Virus record (IMG/VR): IMGVR_UViG_3300005337_000001
Location: 64,001-128,000 of that record
DNA: 64,000 nucleotides
Reading direction: 5' to 3' (one strand)
From: a virus
Shown: piece after piece, positions 8,336 through 23,934 of the stretch
How the letters are laid out: each line of letters opens with the position of its first letter
Numbering within the stretch: the stretch's first letter is position 1
Notes under the pieces: model-generated
Seen by the model: the letters and a program-made list of their open reading frames with translations, nothing else
Database searches by the model: none
What the model was told of the DNA's origin: nothing
Position numbers and translations under genes: made by a program

Positions 8336-8364
8336 TCTTATCCCGGGGGTAGTGCAGGAGTTGC
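8336..8364 (-). promoter_or_regulatory. Class I promoter motif GCAACT-N17-ATAAGA
   Basis: Matches the motif at 22242, 22855, 23862 and 40259 with identical spacing; TAA is also the stop of the upstream gene. Confidence 0.6.
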
Positions 8365-9486
8365 CAGCGGTGCGACGTGGTCGATCATGCGCTCGAGCCC
8401 GCGCTTCATCCCGTGGTACGCAAGCGAGGCCCCAGGCACGGGGATCGCGTTGCTAGCCAGGGTGCCGATAGGGTCCTGCGCTACGAGCTTGGCGCCGCTG
8501 GTAGCTACGTTCTTGAGCTTGCCTTCCGGCAGCTTGCTCAAGCCCTTGTTCGCCACGTTCATCACGGGCTGCGTCACCTTCTTACCCCACCAGCTCTCGA
8601 CGCCGTGCTGCAAACCTGCAAGCTCTTGCGGAGAGCGCCGCTTCATCAGCAGCCGCGGCGTCTGCGGAATGTCGGTGGCACCTAGGCGCACAAGCCTTTC
8701 CAGAAGCGCCTCCTTGGCAAGGCCAGCGACCTTCATCCCGTGCCCGAGCGACTGCCCAAGCAGACCTGGTACCGCGGCCATCGGGATCTGCGAGGCGTAC
8801 GAACCGTAAGCGCGCAGCAGTTGCGACTTGGCGCGGGCCACCTGTTCTTCGGTAGCCCCGTTGTCGCGCATGTGTTGGATTGCTTTGTAACTGGCAACAA
8901 TCTCAGGGATGTTGCTGATAGCATTCACGAGCATGGGGGCTGCGATCGAGGCCATGCTCAGGGCCTTTCCTCCATGACCGGCGCCAGCGAACATCCCAGC
9001 TGCGACTCCACCGACATTGGCGAGGGATGAAGCGTCGTCGCCATGCCGTTGCAGCAGCCTACCGATGGTGCTCTTGTCGAAGTCGCCGTGCCCTATCTCG
9101 TGCGCCAGCACGCCGGGCACATTGGCCTTCGGGTTCATGATGATGCTCGTTTTGTCGGCGCTTGGTTTGAACCCGAACTCTTTCTCAACGGCCTCGAGCA
9201 CCTCAGGCGGCGCACCTGGCAGCAAAGCCGCGCCGTGCTCCATCTTCGGCGTCTTGTGCACCTTGTACTCGGAGTTATCGACGATACGCTCCGTAAGCAA
9301 GCGGTCGTCTTTGCTGCGTCGACTCTTGCTGATGTGCTTGTCCATCGAGTTGATGGCCATGCTGTTCAACCCCAAGCTTGCACCACCAACGCCGAGGCCG
9401 ACCAGCAGCTTCAGAACCTGCGCCTTGGTGTCCGCGGGCATCTCCGCCAACGTCGCGCGCATGGAGTTTAACGCGCGTGACTCCAT
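8338..9486 (-). CDS. Putative head-packaged zinc metallopeptidase (YugP/Zn_peptidase_2-like)
   Basis: GVLAHEIGHG (HExxH), hydrophobic Gly-rich segments, downstream PEIVASYKAIQHM third-ligand Glu. Confidence 0.7.
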   Translation of the reverse strand: MESRALNSMRATLAEMPADTKAQVLKLLVGLGVGGASLGLNSMAINSMDKHISKSRRSKDDRLLTERIVDNSEYKVHKTPKMEHGAALLPGAPPEVLEAVEKEFGFKPSADKTSIIMNPKANVPGVLAHEIGHGDFDKSTIGRLLQRHGDDASSLANVGGVAAGMFAGAGHGGKALSMASIAAPMLVNAISNIPEIVASYKAIQHMRDNGATEEQVARAKSQLLRAYGSYASQIPMAAVPGLLGQSLGHGMKVAGLAKEALLERLVRLGATDIPQTPRLLMKRRSPQELAGLQHGVESWWGKKVTQPVMNVANKGLSKLPEGKLKNVATSGAKLVAQDPIGTLASNAIPVPGASLAYHGMKRGLERMIDHVAPLATPALPPG

Positions 9487-18338: not shown

Positions 18339-18607
18339 TAAATCACCGTGTCCGTCTTGATGAGGAAGTCCTTCACGCTGCGCGGCGGCGGGGTGCCGGC
18401 GTAGGGCTCGCCCTGACTGATGGCAAAGGCGGTGGCCTTCACCATGATAGAGAGCAAGTCTTCCGGTACGATTTTGTCGCGCAGCATGAAGCGGTAGATG
18501 CGCCCATTCTTGCGCAGAGAAATCGGCACTTCGATGCGCTCGCCGAGCGCGCAGCCCGGCGGGATGCGGAGCTCGGTCACGTCTTGGAACAGCAGAGACT
18601 TGGCCAT
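18338..18607 (-). CDS. Hypothetical protein
   Basis: 89 aa, coupled at both ends (TGATG/TAATG). Confidence 0.6.
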   Translation of the reverse strand: MAKSLLFQDVTELRIPPGCALGERIEVPISLRKNGRIYRFMLRDKIVPEDLLSIMVKATAFAISQGEPYAGTPPPRSVKDFLIKTDTVI

Positions 18608-21600
18608 CAGGGTGTCTTTTCGGGGTCTGTCTTGCCGGTGTTGCCGGCGATCTCGGCGAGCTTGGCGCGCGCGGCCTCGTTGGACTTGACCATGGCTTCC
18701 AAATATCGGTTGCTCTCGCCGATCTTGTCGATGATCTTTTCCTCGGGGGACTGGTTGCTTTTCGCCTGCTCCTCGAGCTTCTTCTTTGTCTCGTCGGTAG
18801 CACCAGCCATGGCCCGCGACAGGATGGCGCCGCCCTGAATACCGCCGCCCTTCTTGCTGGCTGCTGCGATGGATTCTTCGAGGCTCTTGACGAAGTTCTC
18901 GTCGCCGCCCACGCCGAGTCGTGCGGCCAGAGCTGCGGCAGCGCCGGCAGCGTCCTTGCCCTTGAGGCCCTTGAGCTCGTCGGCCCCGAACTGCAGGCCC
19001 AGCTGCGACGCAATAGCTCCCGCCGCACCCATCTTTCGCTTCGAGCCCTCGATGGCCTGGCCGCGCATGATCATCTCAGATGCCTGACCTCCGACCTCCG
19101 TACCGGCCATCTGCGAGCCAAGCGCGCGCAAGCTCTTCACGTCCATGCCGGACATCTGGTTGTACAGGTCTCCGCCCTTAGCGGTCATCTTCTCGTAGAT
19201 CGCCGCCTTCTCTTCCGGCGTCGACGCCTTGCTCATCTCCATGCCCAACGACTGCACTTCGAGCGCCATCTGCGCTGCCTGTACCGCACCCTGGCCGCCC
19301 TGCTTGGCCAGTTTCATCTTGGCGTCGTCAGTGAGCATGAGCGTGTCGACGACGGTGCCGCCGGCGCCACGACCGTCGCTGCCTGTGCGCACGCCCACGA
19401 GCTTGGCGATGCCGCCAGCACGCAGCGCCTGCATTTCTTGACGCGCGCTCTTACCAACCTGGCTTGCCAGCTGGTTGATGATCTCTTTGCGCTGCTCAGA
19501 AGCTGCGCCTTGCACCCCCTGCGCCTGGGCCAAGATGCTCTCCTTGGTGACAGCGTCGGGGTCGCCGCCCATCTCAGACACGGTCTTCTTGCGACGAGCG
19601 ATGAGCTTGCCCCAGTCCGCGTTCGACATCTTGTCGACGCCACCCTTGGCGTTGGCGGTCTTCATGAGGTCGGCAGTCAGTCGTACCGACTCGAGCGCGC
19701 CGAGTCGGCCCTGCTCATCCTCGCTCAGCTTGTCGATACCACCACGCTCGGCGCCGGCGCCACGGATGTTCGAGATAGCGCTGAGCAGGCTTTCTTCAGA
19801 ACCAGCGGCGCCCGAGAGCGCGTCGAACGCAACGCGGCGCATCTCAGGGTCGTCGAGCGCAGCGCCGGCGGCACGGGCGCGCTTGGCGTTGCCGTTCCAC
19901 TCTTCGAGCATTTGGCCACCCAAACCGCCAAGCTTTTTACCCAGGAAACCACCAGCGGCCATGCCGGCTGCGCCGCCTAGAAAACCACCAGCAGCGCCGA
20001 GCGCGCTGCCGATCGCACCGGAAGCGCGGGCCATCCCGCTCTTACCAAGGCCGAGCATCGAACGACCCATCACCTCTTGGCGTTGAGCTTCCGTACGCAA
20101 GCTGCCGCCGCCCACCATGTCCGACAGACCAGGGACCTGGAAGGTCTCGCTCAAACGTCCGGACTTGATACCAATCTCGCCTTCCATCTGCTGCATGAAC
20201 TCGGCCTGCTCACGCTGGTCCATGCCGCGGAACTTCTTCCCCATCGCCGTGTCTTTGCCAAAGTGGCGCTTGAATGCAGCCATGCGGTCCTCGCCGCCCA
20301 GACCGCTGAGCTCGTCAGCGTACGCGCGCTTGAGCTCGAGCGAGTTGCCCTTCACCAAGCCGGCCATCTCGTCGCTCATGCTGCCAGCGGTGCCAAGGCG
20401 TGCGGAGAACTGCAGGTCCTCCACGTGCTCTTTGTAACGAGATTGGCTGAAGTTCTCGCGGGGGCCACCCATCCCGGTCATGGCACCACCGCCCAGGTTG
20501 CGGATGAAGCCATTGCTGCCGGTCAGGCTGCCGCGCGCTGCCGCGCCTTCACGCCCGCCCATCATAGCCACGCGGTGCGCCTCGCGCACACCGGTGATGA
20601 TGTGCTCCTCGTAGGTACCGGCGATGCGGTTGCCCCACTCAGAAATCTTGTCGGTGGCCACGTTCAAGATGTCCTGCCCGGCCTTGTTCATCTCGTTGTT
20701 GACCTTGTCGCGCGCAGCCTCGAGCTTGCGCTTCACACCTTCGATGCCCGAGTTCTGAGCGCGAAGACCATGCTCGCGCACCATCGAGTCGTCCTGCTGC
20801 GCCTCGCGCCGGTGCTGCATCATCTCCGGCATCTTCCGGACCATCTTCATCATCGAGTCCATCTCGTCGCGCCCCATGCCGAGCTGCCGCTGCATGAACA
20901 GCATTTCGCGGTCGCCCATCGAGTGAACGTCGATCCCCTTGCCCTGCGCCCAGCCCATCATCGCCATGGCCGGAGCCATGCCACCGAACTCTTCCATCAC
21001 AGCACCACGCAGGCGCCCTTCGTTACGGATGAAGTTGGCGCGGCCCACACCAGCCAGGTTCTTGTGCGCGGCGTTGCGTGTGTCGTTCACGCTCATGCCG
21101 CCCGTGAGAAAGTCGTTGACTGAGCCTTGGTTGAGCTTCCCGTCCTTGCCGGCGAGCGAAGCCAGAAGCCAGCGGCCTTTGCTGGACTTCAAAAAGCTAC
21201 CCGTCTGCATCATGTTCTGCTGCGCCATGGCAGCACGGCCTTCAGCCCCGGTTTGGCCCGTGGCTTGGAAGATGTCCTCTTCGCTCAGCGCGCCGACCTG
21301 CTGCGCGATGCCGACTTGCTCGATGGCTTTGATGCCGCCCATCGCGCCCTGTCTGCCGGTACCGCCGAACATGCGGCTGATCTGCGAGCCGGCGTTCATC
21401 ATGCCGGTGACTTCGGTCGTAGCCAGACCGCCGCTCACTGACGCAGCACGGATCGCTCCGCTCACACCAGCCTGGTTACGGAAGACGCCCGACCCTTTCA
21501 TGGAGGCCATCGTCTTTTGCGCCTCCTCGAGCGTCGTACCCATGTCCTCGGCGATGGCCTTCACCGACTTCATCATCTCGCGAAACTTCTCGGTGAACTC

Positions 21601-22209
21601 CTTGGAGTTGCGCACGCCGTCGGCGAGACCCATACGACCCATGTTCGACGCGAGACGACCGAGCTCGTTGAAGCTAGGCCCTAGCTCGGTGAGGCCACCC
21701 TCACCTGCCATGCTGCGCATGTTGCCGCCGATGGATCGAATATCACCTTCGGAGAAGCCACGACCGTGGCTAGCGCCAGGATTGAAGAACGAGTAGCCGT
21801 TGCGCATCGACTGGTTGAATTGCTGGCCCTGCTGCATGCCCTGCATGACCTGGTTGCCCATGTAGCTGATGGCGCCGATGCCAAGAGCCATACCGCCGCC
21901 TACTGCAGCACCAGTCAACGCAGCTCCACCAAACCCAGCACCTGCCCCCATCGCTCCGGCGCCGGCGCGCACGCCTATTGACATCGGGTCGAGCCCCATC
22001 ATGCCAAGGCCGAGCATTGCCGCGGGAGCGCCGATAGCACTCGACGTGTTGAGCGCGCTGGCGGCCATACCTTCGCTCTGTCCACGCGTGTTCATCCCGC
22101 CGAAGTTGTAGCCGTTCGGTTGAATCATCCCCGCGTACTGCATCTGCTGCATGTGCTGCTGGGTGAAGGACCCATTCAGCTGGGCGATTTGTGCGGAGGA
22201 AAGCGGCAT
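18607..22209 (-). CDS. Tape measure protein
   Basis: 1200 aa, helical, Ala/Gly/Met-rich with Gly-rich hydrophobic stretches, upstream of baseplate genes. Confidence 0.8.
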   Translation of the reverse strand: MPLSSAQIAQLNGSFTQQHMQQMQYAGMIQPNGYNFGGMNTRGQSEGMAASALNTSSAIGAPAAMLGLGMMGLDPMSIGVRAGAGAMGAGAGFGGAALTGAAVGGGMALGIGAISYMGNQVMQGMQQGQQFNQSMRNGYSFFNPGASHGRGFSEGDIRSIGGNMRSMAGEGGLTELGPSFNELGRLASNMGRMGLADGVRNSKEFTEKFREMMKSVKAIAEDMGTTLEEAQKTMASMKGSGVFRNQAGVSGAIRAASVSGGLATTEVTGMMNAGSQISRMFGGTGRQGAMGGIKAIEQVGIAQQVGALSEEDIFQATGQTGAEGRAAMAQQNMMQTGSFLKSSKGRWLLASLAGKDGKLNQGSVNDFLTGGMSVNDTRNAAHKNLAGVGRANFIRNEGRLRGAVMEEFGGMAPAMAMMGWAQGKGIDVHSMGDREMLFMQRQLGMGRDEMDSMMKMVRKMPEMMQHRREAQQDDSMVREHGLRAQNSGIEGVKRKLEAARDKVNNEMNKAGQDILNVATDKISEWGNRIAGTYEEHIITGVREAHRVAMMGGREGAAARGSLTGSNGFIRNLGGGAMTGMGGPRENFSQSRYKEHVEDLQFSARLGTAGSMSDEMAGLVKGNSLELKRAYADELSGLGGEDRMAAFKRHFGKDTAMGKKFRGMDQREQAEFMQQMEGEIGIKSGRLSETFQVPGLSDMVGGGSLRTEAQRQEVMGRSMLGLGKSGMARASGAIGSALGAAGGFLGGAAGMAAGGFLGKKLGGLGGQMLEEWNGNAKRARAAGAALDDPEMRRVAFDALSGAAGSEESLLSAISNIRGAGAERGGIDKLSEDEQGRLGALESVRLTADLMKTANAKGGVDKMSNADWGKLIARRKKTVSEMGGDPDAVTKESILAQAQGVQGAASEQRKEIINQLASQVGKSARQEMQALRAGGIAKLVGVRTGSDGRGAGGTVVDTLMLTDDAKMKLAKQGGQGAVQAAQMALEVQSLGMEMSKASTPEEKAAIYEKMTAKGGDLYNQMSGMDVKSLRALGSQMAGTEVGGQASEMIMRGQAIEGSKRKMGAAGAIASQLGLQFGADELKGLKGKDAAGAAAALAARLGVGGDENFVKSLEESIAAASKKGGGIQGGAILSRAMAGATDETKKKLEEQAKSNQSPEEKIIDKIGESNRYLEAMVKSNEAARAKLAEIAGNTGKTDPEKTP

Positions 22210-22241
22210 CTACTTCCCAAGATCCTAACACGTGGCACCAA

Positions 22242-22280
22242 GCAAAAAGCTCGGGGCATCGGAGATAAGAATGATGAAGG
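22242..22280 (+). promoter_or_regulatory. Class I promoter motif GCAAAA-N17-ATAAGA-N4-TGAAGG
   Basis: Intergenic, divergent from tape measure; exact spacing shared with four other sites. Confidence 0.65.
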
Positions 22281-22425
22281 CGCTGGAAGCCCTCTCTTCG
22301 GAGAACCTCCTGCGAGATTGCTCCTCCTTCTTGGGCCAGCGCCTCGGCGTGCCCTTCGGCAAGGCACGTCATCGTGTCCCCCACACCCCCACCAGCAGGA
22401 CTCGTCATCCTGTTGGTGGGGTGCC
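22276..22425 (+). ncRNA. Candidate structured ncRNA / 5' leader
   Basis: 9-bp stem 22278-86/22336-44; TCTC-TTCG-GAGA 22293-304; 8-bp stem 22346-53/22363-70 with CTTCGG; 14-bp hairpin 22387-22421. Confidence 0.55.
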
Positions 22426-22462
22426 GCTTGCTGTGAAAGTCGACCAAGCTTCAAAACTAGCC

Positions 22463-22900
22463 ATGCATCGAAACCAAACATCCATCATCTTCACGCCGGA
22501 CCAGCTGCTACGAGCCGTCAAAGGCTGGTGCTGGGACTGCGGCGAGAGAGTGCCTGACTACATCGTGCAGAAAGAGGTTTGGAATGCAGCCTGGCCCGGC
22601 GACGATCGAATGGGTACTAAACGTCTCAAGCGTCTGAAGCAAGCAGCGACCAGGGTCTTTCCTGAACGCGCTCGCTCCATCGACAGCAACCTCGTGCACG
22701 TTCACGTCCACCTGTGCTTCCCCTGCTTGGAGAAGAGGCTGGGCAGGAAACTAGTCATCACCGACTTCACCACCAAGACCAGAGCGGGGAAGATCGTCAA
22801 GGAGAACGCTGGGATCTTCCTCGGCTTCATGTTGGGGCAGAAGGTAGAGCGTGCGAAAAAAGGCGAGGAAACCGGGGATAAGAAAGATGAAGGAGGATAG
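22463..22900 (+). CDS. Hypothetical Zn-binding phage protein
   Basis: CWDC...Y.V...VW..A...LCFPCLEKRLGRKLVITDF pattern seen in small phage proteins; start uncertain. Confidence 0.55.
   Translation: MHRNQTSIIFTPDQLLRAVKGWCWDCGERVPDYIVQKEVWNAAWPGDDRMGTKRLKRLKQAATRVFPERARSIDSNLVHVHVHLCFPCLEKRLGRKLVITDFTTKTRAGKIVKENAGIFLGFMLGQKVERAKKGEETGDKKDEGG
22855..22893 (+). promoter_or_regulatory. Class I promoter motif GAAAAA-N17-ATAAGA-N4-TGAAGG
   Basis: Same spacing; followed by AAGGAGG SD and ATG 22903. Confidence 0.55.
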
Positions 22901-22931
22901 CAATGTCCCAACAATCAGGTGAGCTGGCGCC

Positions 22932-23045
22932 GTGCTGAGCGTAGCCAGCCTCATCGCCGCCGAGTGGTTAGTTGAATTCGCCATCGGCTGGCACAACGGT
23001 TTCATGCGGAAGTACCGCCAAGCGCAAAAGGAAGGACGACTCTGA
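22932..23045 (+). CDS. 37-aa hydrophobic small protein
   Basis: GTG start, MLSVASLIAAEWLVEFAIGWHNGFMRKYRQAQKEGRL, TGATG coupling to next gene. Confidence 0.4.
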   Translation: MLSVASLIAAEWLVEFAIGWHNGFMRKYRQAQKEGRL

Positions 23046-23365
23046 TGCTGACCCCCGTACGTGAGATGGCTGAGCCGGAGCGTCGCCGCCACCAACAGAA
23101 CCTAGGCCTGGTCATTGTGACCCGGCGTTCCGATCCACCACTAACCGAGAAGAGAAAAAGAATGGACGAGACGGCACGACCCCAAACCCCTCGCGCTGGC
23201 ATGAGCCGCGCTGCCCAGACCCTCGAGCGAATGACGGAGACGCCGACCTTCAAAGAGGTCGCGCTCCACGAGCTCCAGCGCGCGTCGGTCTACGTGCCGA
23301 TGCTGTTTTCAGCAGGAATTGGGCTGCTTTGGCTCAACAAGCGCTTCTTCCTGAAGGTCATCTGA
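23045..23365 (+). CDS. Hypothetical protein with C-terminal TM segment
   Basis: AAGGAAGGA SD; VYVPMLFSAGIGLLWL. Confidence 0.55.
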   Translation: MLTPVREMAEPERRRHQQNLGLVIVTRRSDPPLTEKRKRMDETARPQTPRAGMSRAAQTLERMTETPTFKEVALHELQRASVYVPMLFSAGIGLLWLNKRFFLKVI

Positions 23366-23387
23366 CCGACGCCAGGCAGAGGCGGAG

Positions 23388-23420
23388 AAGGCACAAGACC
23401 AATCGGTCACGTGCCTTTTC
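23388..23420 (+). terminator. Rho-independent terminator
   Basis: AAGGCAC-AA-GACC-AATC-GGTC-AC-GTGCCTT-TTC after the stop at 23365. Confidence 0.5.
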
Positions 23421-23559
23421 GTAGCCCTGTGGCGGACATGTGGCGCCTCAATTGTGGTGATGAGCTGCCCACACCCCAAGATGAATTCCCTTGAACTTCG
23501 CTGAGAATTCCCCAAACTACGGACCAGGCAATCAAGCCTATCCGAAATGCAGGTGCACC

Positions 23560-23861: not shown

Positions 23862-23920
23862 GCAAAACACCTCCTTCGCACGGAATAAGAGAAGTGAAGG
23901 CACAGACGTGGGGTCTGTGC
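23862..23920 (+). promoter_or_regulatory. Class I promoter motif plus 5' hairpin
   Basis: GCAAAA-N17-ATAAGA-GAAG-TGAAGG; perfect hairpin GCACAGAC/GTCTGTGC 23900-23920; AAGGAGG SD. Confidence 0.65.
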
Positions 23921-23934
23921 GAAGGAGGTTCCAC

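Follow-up and report, generated by a model that had tools for sequence, protein, structure and literature searches.

The locus and its transcription unit

The window, meaning the whole stretch of 64,000 nucleotides that was analysed, spans bases 64001-128000 of a virus record that has 195,580 bp and direct terminal repeats. The element described here sits in a 253-bp gap between two divergent ORFs. On the left of the gap is a minus-strand ORF of 1200 amino acids (18607-22209, with its start at 22209), which the preliminary description took for a tape measure gene, and the product of which matches nothing in Pfam or PHROG. The ORF on the right, on the plus strand, had been extended back to 22274 by the gene caller, giving 208 amino acids. 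The true start is the ATG at 22463, and the gene (22463-22900, plus strand) encodes a protein of 145 amino acids with four cysteines in a CxxC...CxxC arrangement. Homologous proteins are mostly 140-148 amino acids long and start at the position of this ATG. The four-cysteine protein matches phrog_6053 (unknown function), a wide family of small viral proteins with 293 representatives, and searches for its function in Pfam, PHROG functions, Foldseek PDB, VIA-align and Atlas gave no match; its structure model has a mean pLDDT of 71. A zinc anti-sigma motif, HxxxCxxC, can be read in the window protein and was rejected, as it is not conserved in the family (e.g. in the protein of locus L059).

Three small ORFs follow on the plus strand: one of 11 codons (MSQQSGELAPC*, 22903-22938), a conserved one of 37 amino acids with a GTG start at 22932 (22932-23045), and one of 106 amino acids (23045-23365). 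Small ORFs also follow the four-cysteine gene in the homologous contigs, in the same gene order, and the 37-amino-acid ORF is found in most loci. In the window, the 11-codon ORF holds the position at which the 37-amino-acid ORF starts in the relatives, while the latter begins at 22932 and overlaps the end of the short ORF; its N-terminus here looks like the result of a local frame change. The unit ends with a plus-strand terminator at 23389-23427, where the hairpin AAGGCAC...GUGCCUU is followed by UUCG and then by UAGCCC. This is the form that terminators of this phage generally take, a GC hairpin and a U/C tract almost invariably followed by TAGCCC, and a related UAGCC adjoins the ATG at 22463. 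Terminator-like sites include those at 8420, 11983, 16356, 20430, 62662 and 151332 (genome numbering) on the plus strand, among others, and the combination of hairpin, U/C tract and TAGCCC may be a phage-specific termination or processing signal.

Directly upstream of the element is a phage promoter of a recurrent type, here called class I. It consists of GCAAAA (22242-47), a spacer of 16-17 nt and (G)ATAAGA (22264-69), occupies 22242-22270 on the plus strand, and is present in all homologues with enough flanking sequence. The order of motifs in front of the element is GCAAAA, about 17 nt, ATAAGA and N3-TGAAGG; the class-I motif recurs in the window at 22855 and 23862 and in matching places in the relatives. 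There are 14 copies of GGNATAAGA in the 195-kb genome, where shuffled sequences have 3.3, and the sites in the window are at 8344 (minus strand), 22265, 22875, 23882 and 40279. These sites have CAAA about 17 nt upstream and GAAGG or GGAGG about 5 nt downstream, and lie mostly 15-25 nt before start codons. At the usual class-I sites a purine-rich ribosome binding site (RBS) directly follows the -10-like box, and judging from this arrangement the Shine-Dalgarno sequence of class-I messages would be right at the 5' end. No sigma-70-like site was found at the promoter of the element. The start-site region (T)GATGAAGG (22272-22280, plus strand) is common to other class-I promoters, and RTGAAGG also stands after ATAAGA at 22878 and 23885 and in homologues. 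We infer a transcript start at about 22274-22277. The first helix of the element begins about 8 nt past ATAAGA, where the transcript would begin, and the earlier proposal of a structured RNA that begins at a predicted promoter start site is supported by a recurrent and conserved promoter some 7-8 nt upstream of that helix.

A second class-I promoter lies within the last 15 codons of the four-cysteine gene, together with GAAGGAGGAUAGC (22889-22901), the RBS for the ORF that follows; promoter and RBS span 22855-22901 on the plus strand. The promoter reads GCGAAAAAAG-N14-GGGGATAAGAAAGATGAAGG and overlaps the codons for AKK..GDKKDEGG*. The DNA of 22855-22901 is invariant in 9 of the 12 homologues, synonymous sites included, and the oddly conserved tail of the four-cysteine protein is accounted for by this second role of the sequence as promoter and RBS.

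A conserved fold between promoter and start codon

The approximately 150 bases at the start of this phage transcript are a real, evolutionarily conserved folded RNA. The homologue set comprises 12 distinct loci, namely 11 relatives from a protein search with the long ORF and L059 from a DNA pattern scan, on contigs of related uncultured large phages from Logan, ENA, NCBI and JGI metagenomes. In all 12 loci the element occupies the same place, ahead of the four-cysteine gene. In most of them it comes straight after the same large minus-strand gene, and in L002, L013 and L014 an extra called ORF lies in between. The gap upstream of the four-cysteine gene can be aligned over its full length among the homologues and contains long invariant blocks. 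With a covariance model, a single copy is found in the genome and a single one per related contig, always before the four-cysteine gene. Even in a distant homologue, L279, where the contig begins only 60 nt upstream of the gene, GGUGGGG-UGCCGCUAC...UAGCCAUG is kept, with the 3' arm of the last helix, the tail GCCGCUAC and UAGCCAUG.

Relatives of this element are not easily found by other routes. A blastn search of 21700-23200 against public phage records returned nothing, and protein-based locus searches of IMG/VR gave no relatives. The first DNA pattern scan, with CTCCTTCT-N15-30-CCTTCGGCAAG, returned 13 stretches from viral contigs, 120 from metagenome contigs and 120 from genome contigs. 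Nearly all of these were chance matches (107 came from one conserved coding region reading SFWGSNIAFGKLQE), and the only true members were L059, L133 and L149. A second scan with a pattern from the last helix gave six IMG/VR stretches, none of which matched the covariance model, and a covariance match of 16.8 bits in L273 was rejected since it lies within an ORF of 823 amino acids. In Rfam 15, a cmscan of 21500-23500 with E-values up to 10 produced only a chance snoRNA match elsewhere, and four homologous loci gave no match at E-values up to 1. Literature searches found nothing on such an element. The preliminary description had been unable to assign the RNA to a known family, and the Rfam 15 covariance searches of the window and the four homologous loci agree with it: this is a genuine new family of structured RNA, of a known kind (a structured regulatory leader) and with a fold that has no match in Rfam 15.

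The three helices that had been named at 22276-22425 from the sequence of the window are all present where they were placed. The first, P1, pairs AGGCGCTGG (22278-86) with CCAGCGCCT (22336-44) on the plus strand; three of its pairs have changed on both sides, and 97% of its cells are paired. Together with P1b (CCC 22290-92 with GGG 22333-35, plus strand) it closes a multi-branch domain, 22278-22344. Inside this domain, the P2 region (22294-22324, plus strand) has two competing local folds. Fold A consists of a CUC-UUCG-GAG hairpin (22294-22303) plus a variable hairpin, and fold B of a long stem, GGAG 22300-03 with CUCC 22321-24, which encloses the variable hairpin. When sequences are folded singly, fold B is the minimum-energy fold in 10 of the 12 homologues; covariation cannot separate the two because the bases involved are invariant. 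The variable hairpin, between GGAG and GCUCC, differs in sequence and length (about 15-55 nt) from lineage to lineage and forms a stem in every homologue, and a hairpin that varies in length while keeping its pairing is typical of structured RNAs.

The second named helix, P3, pairs GGCGTGCC (22346-53) with GGCACGTC (22363-70) on the plus strand, and four of its five counted pairs have changed on both sides. Its loop block of 11 nt, CCUUCGGCAAG (22353-63, plus strand), is invariant in all 12 homologues. This modifies the earlier reading of two C(UUCG)G tetraloops. Both UUCG sequences are there, but the first, in the hairpin at 22294-22303, is UUUCG, UUCAG or UUCA in three of the 12 homologues, and the second belongs to the invariant block of 11 nt rather than to a simple tetraloop. 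After P3 comes a single-stranded CCCCAC (22379-22384, plus strand), also invariant in 12 of 12, which copies the first six bases of the 5' arm of the next helix and could possibly pair, as an alternative, with GUGGGG 22416-21. That helix, P4, is a 14-bp hairpin of CCCCACCAGCAGGA (22387-22400) and TCCTGTTGGTGGGG (22408-21) on the plus strand with many G-U pairs; pairing holds in 98% of its cells, and in five pairs both partners have changed. Its loop of 7 nt (22401-07) includes the invariant UCGUCA (22402-07).

From P4 an A-rich linker (22422-22462, plus strand) leads to the AUG. It is predicted to be partly unpaired and contains the invariant GCCG (22423-26) and the invariant UAGCC (22458-62), which adjoins the AUG; no conserved Shine-Dalgarno sequence was found in it in the homologue alignment. 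The sequence UAGCCAUGC at the start codon (22458-22466) is invariant in 13 of 13 loci, though the first residues of the protein vary. The idea that UAGCCAUGC, or its UAG before the AUG, provides the stop codon of an upstream ORF was rejected, as conservation was not seen for any upstream ORF with this UAG as its stop, and TAGCCATG as a start context recurring in the genome was rejected too.

Covariation, which the preliminary description had named as one way to check the RNA, was counted by splitting the homologues into modules by anchor motifs and scoring the hand-drawn structure on the resulting alignment. Standard pairs make up 97.3% of 408 cells across the 12 homologues. Changes on both sides were seen for 12 pairs in 30 cells, a count that was reached by none of 500 shuffles, and in a control in which the 3' partners were slid by 1-3 columns only 36-49% of cells paired. 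Compensatory changes across the 12 homologues occur in P1, P3 and P4, with several pairs per helix, and RNAalifold independently recovers the same three helices. The RNA is also under stronger constraint than the adjacent gene: averaged over pairs of homologues, identity reaches 82% in the RNA and 71.5% in the coding sequence next to it, and in the comparison with L059 the RNA is 92% identical, against 65% at the nucleotide level and 43% at the amino acid level for the gene. Pseudoknot candidates (5' UGAYGA with loop UCGUCA; loop CGGC with tail GCCG; GGGGAU with GUCCCC) consist of invariant or promoter-constrained bases and so are beyond the reach of covariation; the pairing GGGGAU/GUCCCC is broken without compensation in three of 11 homologues. 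A column-by-column covariation search for extra long-range pairs was swamped by the two-clade phylogeny and gave no usable output.

Strand and coding status

The element is a non-coding, structured RNA of the plus strand, with a fixed position between promoter and ATG. Folding energy supports a structure: the plus strand comes to -74.9 kcal/mol and dinucleotide shuffles to -56.1 +/- 4.1 (z -4.6), and none of 200 shuffles did as well. On the minus strand the fold is about equally good (z -5.05), and for this reason the strand was not chosen by fold energy. The equal folding of both strands, and the location in a divergent intergenic region, would also fit an element that acts as DNA, i.e. a cruciform, a protein-binding site or a replication signal. 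Against this, the plus-strand helices of the 12 homologues contain 27 G-U pairs and 10 A-C pairs, counts that would swap on the minus strand, so that pairing appears to be maintained on one strand only; a hairpin of variable length in combination with invariant loops is typical of RNA, and the conserved promoter fires into the element. A DNA-level role is thus very improbable. The excess of G-U over A-C (27 vs 10) and the rightward orientation of the conserved promoter favour the plus strand, as had been suggested from the G-U pairs of the window.

The second question is whether the region codes for protein, either as an N-terminal extension of the four-cysteine protein (208 amino acids from the ATG at 22274, or 209 from 22271) or as a leader peptide. 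In the window the frame is open from 22232, has ATGs at 22271 and 22274 with GGAG 7 nt upstream, and long genes have been called in the record of the window itself and in the homologues P0005 and P0006. However, 8 of the 12 homologues have this frame closed or shifted, with in-frame stops that in L008, L018 and L059 stand only 15-18 nt before the ATG. The distance from the pyrimidine tract (described below) to the ATG at 22463 is 137-143 nt in the homologues, with all three mod-3 classes represented. The ATG at 22274 is replaced by ACG in three of the 12 (L002, L012 and L016), no uORF is conserved in the leader across the homologues, and the two ATGs lie at or before the inferred transcript start. 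The probability left for a coding role is close to nil, and as a conserved feature it is already refuted. From the frame-breaking indels, the stops and the ACG at 22274 it follows that the open frame is incidental, a by-product of the G+C-rich sequence in the window, and that the gene starts at 22463. It had been remarked from the window sequence that the frame does not read naturally before about 22463, and the indels and stops of the homologues give the same answer.

Candidate functions of the leader

The element makes up the first ~145 nt of a 5' leader of about 187 nt that precedes the four-cysteine gene and two or three small ORFs. The preliminary description left a choice between a small RNA that masks Shine-Dalgarno sequences and a regulatory leader. 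Here the evidence leans towards a leader rather than a free small RNA, because the linker is conserved, its length from P4 to the AUG is fixed (41 nt in the window and 37-41 nt across the homologues), and P4 is not followed by a terminator. No terminator-like site was found in the linker, and nothing of the phage's own terminator form. The idea of masking gains one candidate Shine-Dalgarno target, with one compensatory change.

This target emerges from the pyrimidine tract, which resembles an anti-Shine-Dalgarno sequence. The CU tract CTCCTCCTTCTT (also written GCUCCUCCUUCU or GCTCCTCCTTCT; GCUCCUCCUUCUU at 22320-22332, plus strand) occurs once in the window and is present and unchanged in 11 of the 12 homologues. 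It had been described as unpaired; it is indeed there and nearly invariant, but its first 4-5 bases are paired in fold B of the P2 region. The tract is perfectly complementary over 9 nt to GAAGGAGGA, a 9-mer with only two sense-orientation occurrences in 195 kb, each immediately behind a class-I -10 box. The element's own transcription unit contains one of the two, at the RBS 22889-22901. The duplex of tract and RBS, including flanking GC, has 11 bp with a 2-nt bulge and -17.8 kcal/mol, and is the best site in the operon mRNA; a genome-wide duplex scan for targets of the tract was non-specific and gave no outstanding one. Tract and site have both changed in a single lineage, that of L014, L015 and L017, the tract from C to U and the site from GGA to GAC; neither has changed in any other. 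These changes turn one G-C pair into A-U and keep the pairing, with duplex energies of -17.8 and -16.1 kcal/mol for the matched and -14.5 and -15.2 kcal/mol for the mismatched combinations. This covariation is a single lineage event, with tract and site otherwise invariant over 12 lineages, and the same C-to-U change also fits a local pairing GAG/CUU in L014.

RBS masking is something that the phage appears to use elsewhere. The neighbouring class-I unit has a perfect 13-nt complement of anti-Shine-Dalgarno and Shine-Dalgarno sequences, ACCTCCTTCGCAC (23869-23881) with GTGCGAAGGAGGT (23917-23929); the anti-Shine-Dalgarno arm is part of the spacer in the class-I promoter at 23862, and thus only read-through transcripts would carry it. 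By analogy with this pair, we propose that the leader masks the RBS at 22889. According to this model the fold would display the tract GCUCCUCCUUCU, which on the full-length transcript would pair with the purine-rich RBS GAAGGAGGAUAGC (22889-22901) at the end of the four-cysteine gene, and the RBS would stay masked unless the duplex is opened or bypassed. Opening could come from ribosomes translating the four-cysteine gene (translational coupling), and a bypass from the internal class-I promoter (22855-85), which would make a short transcript without the leader. Tertiary contacts, or the binding of a factor that sets the switch, would probably be the task of the invariant P3 and P4 loops together with the CCCCAC repeat and the GCCG tail.

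A cis-acting translational control leader that masks a distant RBS is the reading we favour, at somewhat less than an even chance. Several points count against it. The partners are about 565 nt apart, and the tract is able to pair with any strong Shine-Dalgarno sequence. That 22855-22901 serves at once as promoter, RBS and coding sequence is reason enough for its invariance, and a simple anti-Shine-Dalgarno sequence needs no fold of 145 nt with invariant loops. Masking gives no account of the invariant P3 and P4 loops, of the CCCCAC repeat or of the UAGCC that precedes the AUG. Nor does the four-cysteine gene, which comes first after the leader, have a conserved Shine-Dalgarno sequence, and sequestration of its start region is not predicted.

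The same tract can be read as acting in trans. A stable RNA (a fragment processed from the leader, or the leader itself in abundance), whose C/U-rich segments mimic the 3' end of 16S rRNA, would pair with Shine-Dalgarno sequences, e.g. those of class-I mRNAs with short leaders, and would shut off or time their translation. An invariant anti-Shine-Dalgarno-like tract and two CCCCAC repeats fit such a role, as do the class-I promoters, most of which give leaders of 15-25 nt beginning with GAAGG or GGAGG and complementary to the tract, and the exact complement of 9 nt at two class-I sites. The RNA is also more conserved than the neighbouring gene, and P1 starts at the inferred 5' end, as in stable RNAs. 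On the other side, there is no terminator or recognisable 3' end after P4, the fixed spacing and the conserved linker to the AUG argue for a role in cis, target prediction is non-specific, and the tract may be partly paired internally. A trans-acting RNA is for these reasons about half as probable as the masking leader. The boldest form of the idea, a phage-made mimic of the 16S rRNA 3' tail that serves as a stable decoy in trans, with extended anti-Shine-Dalgarno tracts on a rigid scaffold, would occupy Shine-Dalgarno sequences (the 5'-terminal GAAGGAGG of class-I messages, or host messages) and so reprogram, during infection, the choice of messages on which ribosomes can initiate; this is less probable again.

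The fold could also be an operator or aptamer for a protein, most simply the four-cysteine protein in autogenous control, or for a small ligand, as in a riboswitch, and binding would set the translation or the stability of the mRNA. The invariant CCUUCGGCAAG, UCGUCA, CCCCAC and GCCG fit a specific recognition surface. The strict linkage to the same gene, in 12 of 12 loci and in the distant homologue, points in the same direction, though it partly reflects how most homologues were found. The gene is also without a conserved Shine-Dalgarno sequence, so that initiation may depend on the leader. Less in keeping with an operator, no Pfam, fold or Atlas assignment points to RNA binding by the four-cysteine protein, and no expression platform was found, neither a terminator nor a start-codon hairpin being consistently predicted. 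As regards riboswitches in particular, there is a conserved branched fold with one local alternative pairing (UUCG hairpin versus GGAG/CUCC) and no consistent pairing over the start region. An operator or aptamer is an unlikely but serious candidate, on a par with the trans-acting RNA.

Finally, the nascent fold could modify the RNA polymerase itself, of host or phage, and make it resistant to termination across the unit, in the manner of HK022 put. The position would suit this, since the element follows the promoter directly and starts where the transcript is inferred to start. However, it is carried by one of about 15 class-I promoters only, the unit of about 1.15 kb contains no internal terminator that was found and would have to be overridden, and Rfam shows no similarity to known elements. 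Such a role is doubtful, more so than that of the decoy.

It is worth noting that large uncultured phages with transcription machinery of their own are almost unexplored at the RNA level, and that the element is an RNA family supported by covariation, without a relative in Rfam, and linked to a class of promoters specific to the phage. A gene model is also corrected, in that the four-cysteine gene starts at 22463 and not at 22274 as gene callers had it. If the tract masks the distant RBS, promoter choice would be wired to translation, with a downstream gene that is silent from one promoter and active from the next; if the RNA instead is an anti-Shine-Dalgarno decoy in trans, a virus would be directing the host ribosome by a new means. 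Under either reading the element is a defined, short and testable RNA.

Among known systems, HK022 put RNA has about 70 nt in two stem-loops and acts on the host RNA polymerase. It shares with the element that a structured RNA is encoded immediately downstream of a phage promoter, but there is no similarity in sequence or structure, and no internal terminator was found in the unit here. The C-rich anti-Shine-Dalgarno small RNAs of Firmicutes, of the RsaE/RoxS type, similarly repeat unpaired C/U-rich motifs complementary to Shine-Dalgarno sequences in one structured RNA. In contrast to these, the element has no Rfam match, no terminator of its own and another architecture, and it is an mRNA leader encoded by a phage. 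The gene 32 pseudoknot of T4 and the operators of T4 gene 43 and regA are phage translational operators in 5' leaders. Like them, the element is a structured phage 5' leader with conserved loop nucleotides for which autogenous control is plausible, but it is much larger (~145 nt, with four or five helices), its fold leaves the start codon region outside, and the protein has no known RNA-binding activity. Parallels to the favoured masking model are the masking of an RBS over a long distance in RNA coliphages, as by the 'Min Jou' interaction of MS2, and other cases in which mRNA structure couples translation. There as here, a segment far upstream is complementary to a downstream RBS, and translation of the gene in between would open the duplex. 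The pairing proposed here, which would rest on one compensatory change, differs in that the genome is DNA with its own promoter class, that the internal promoter would provide a second bypass, and that the masking segment lies inside a large, independently conserved 5' fold.
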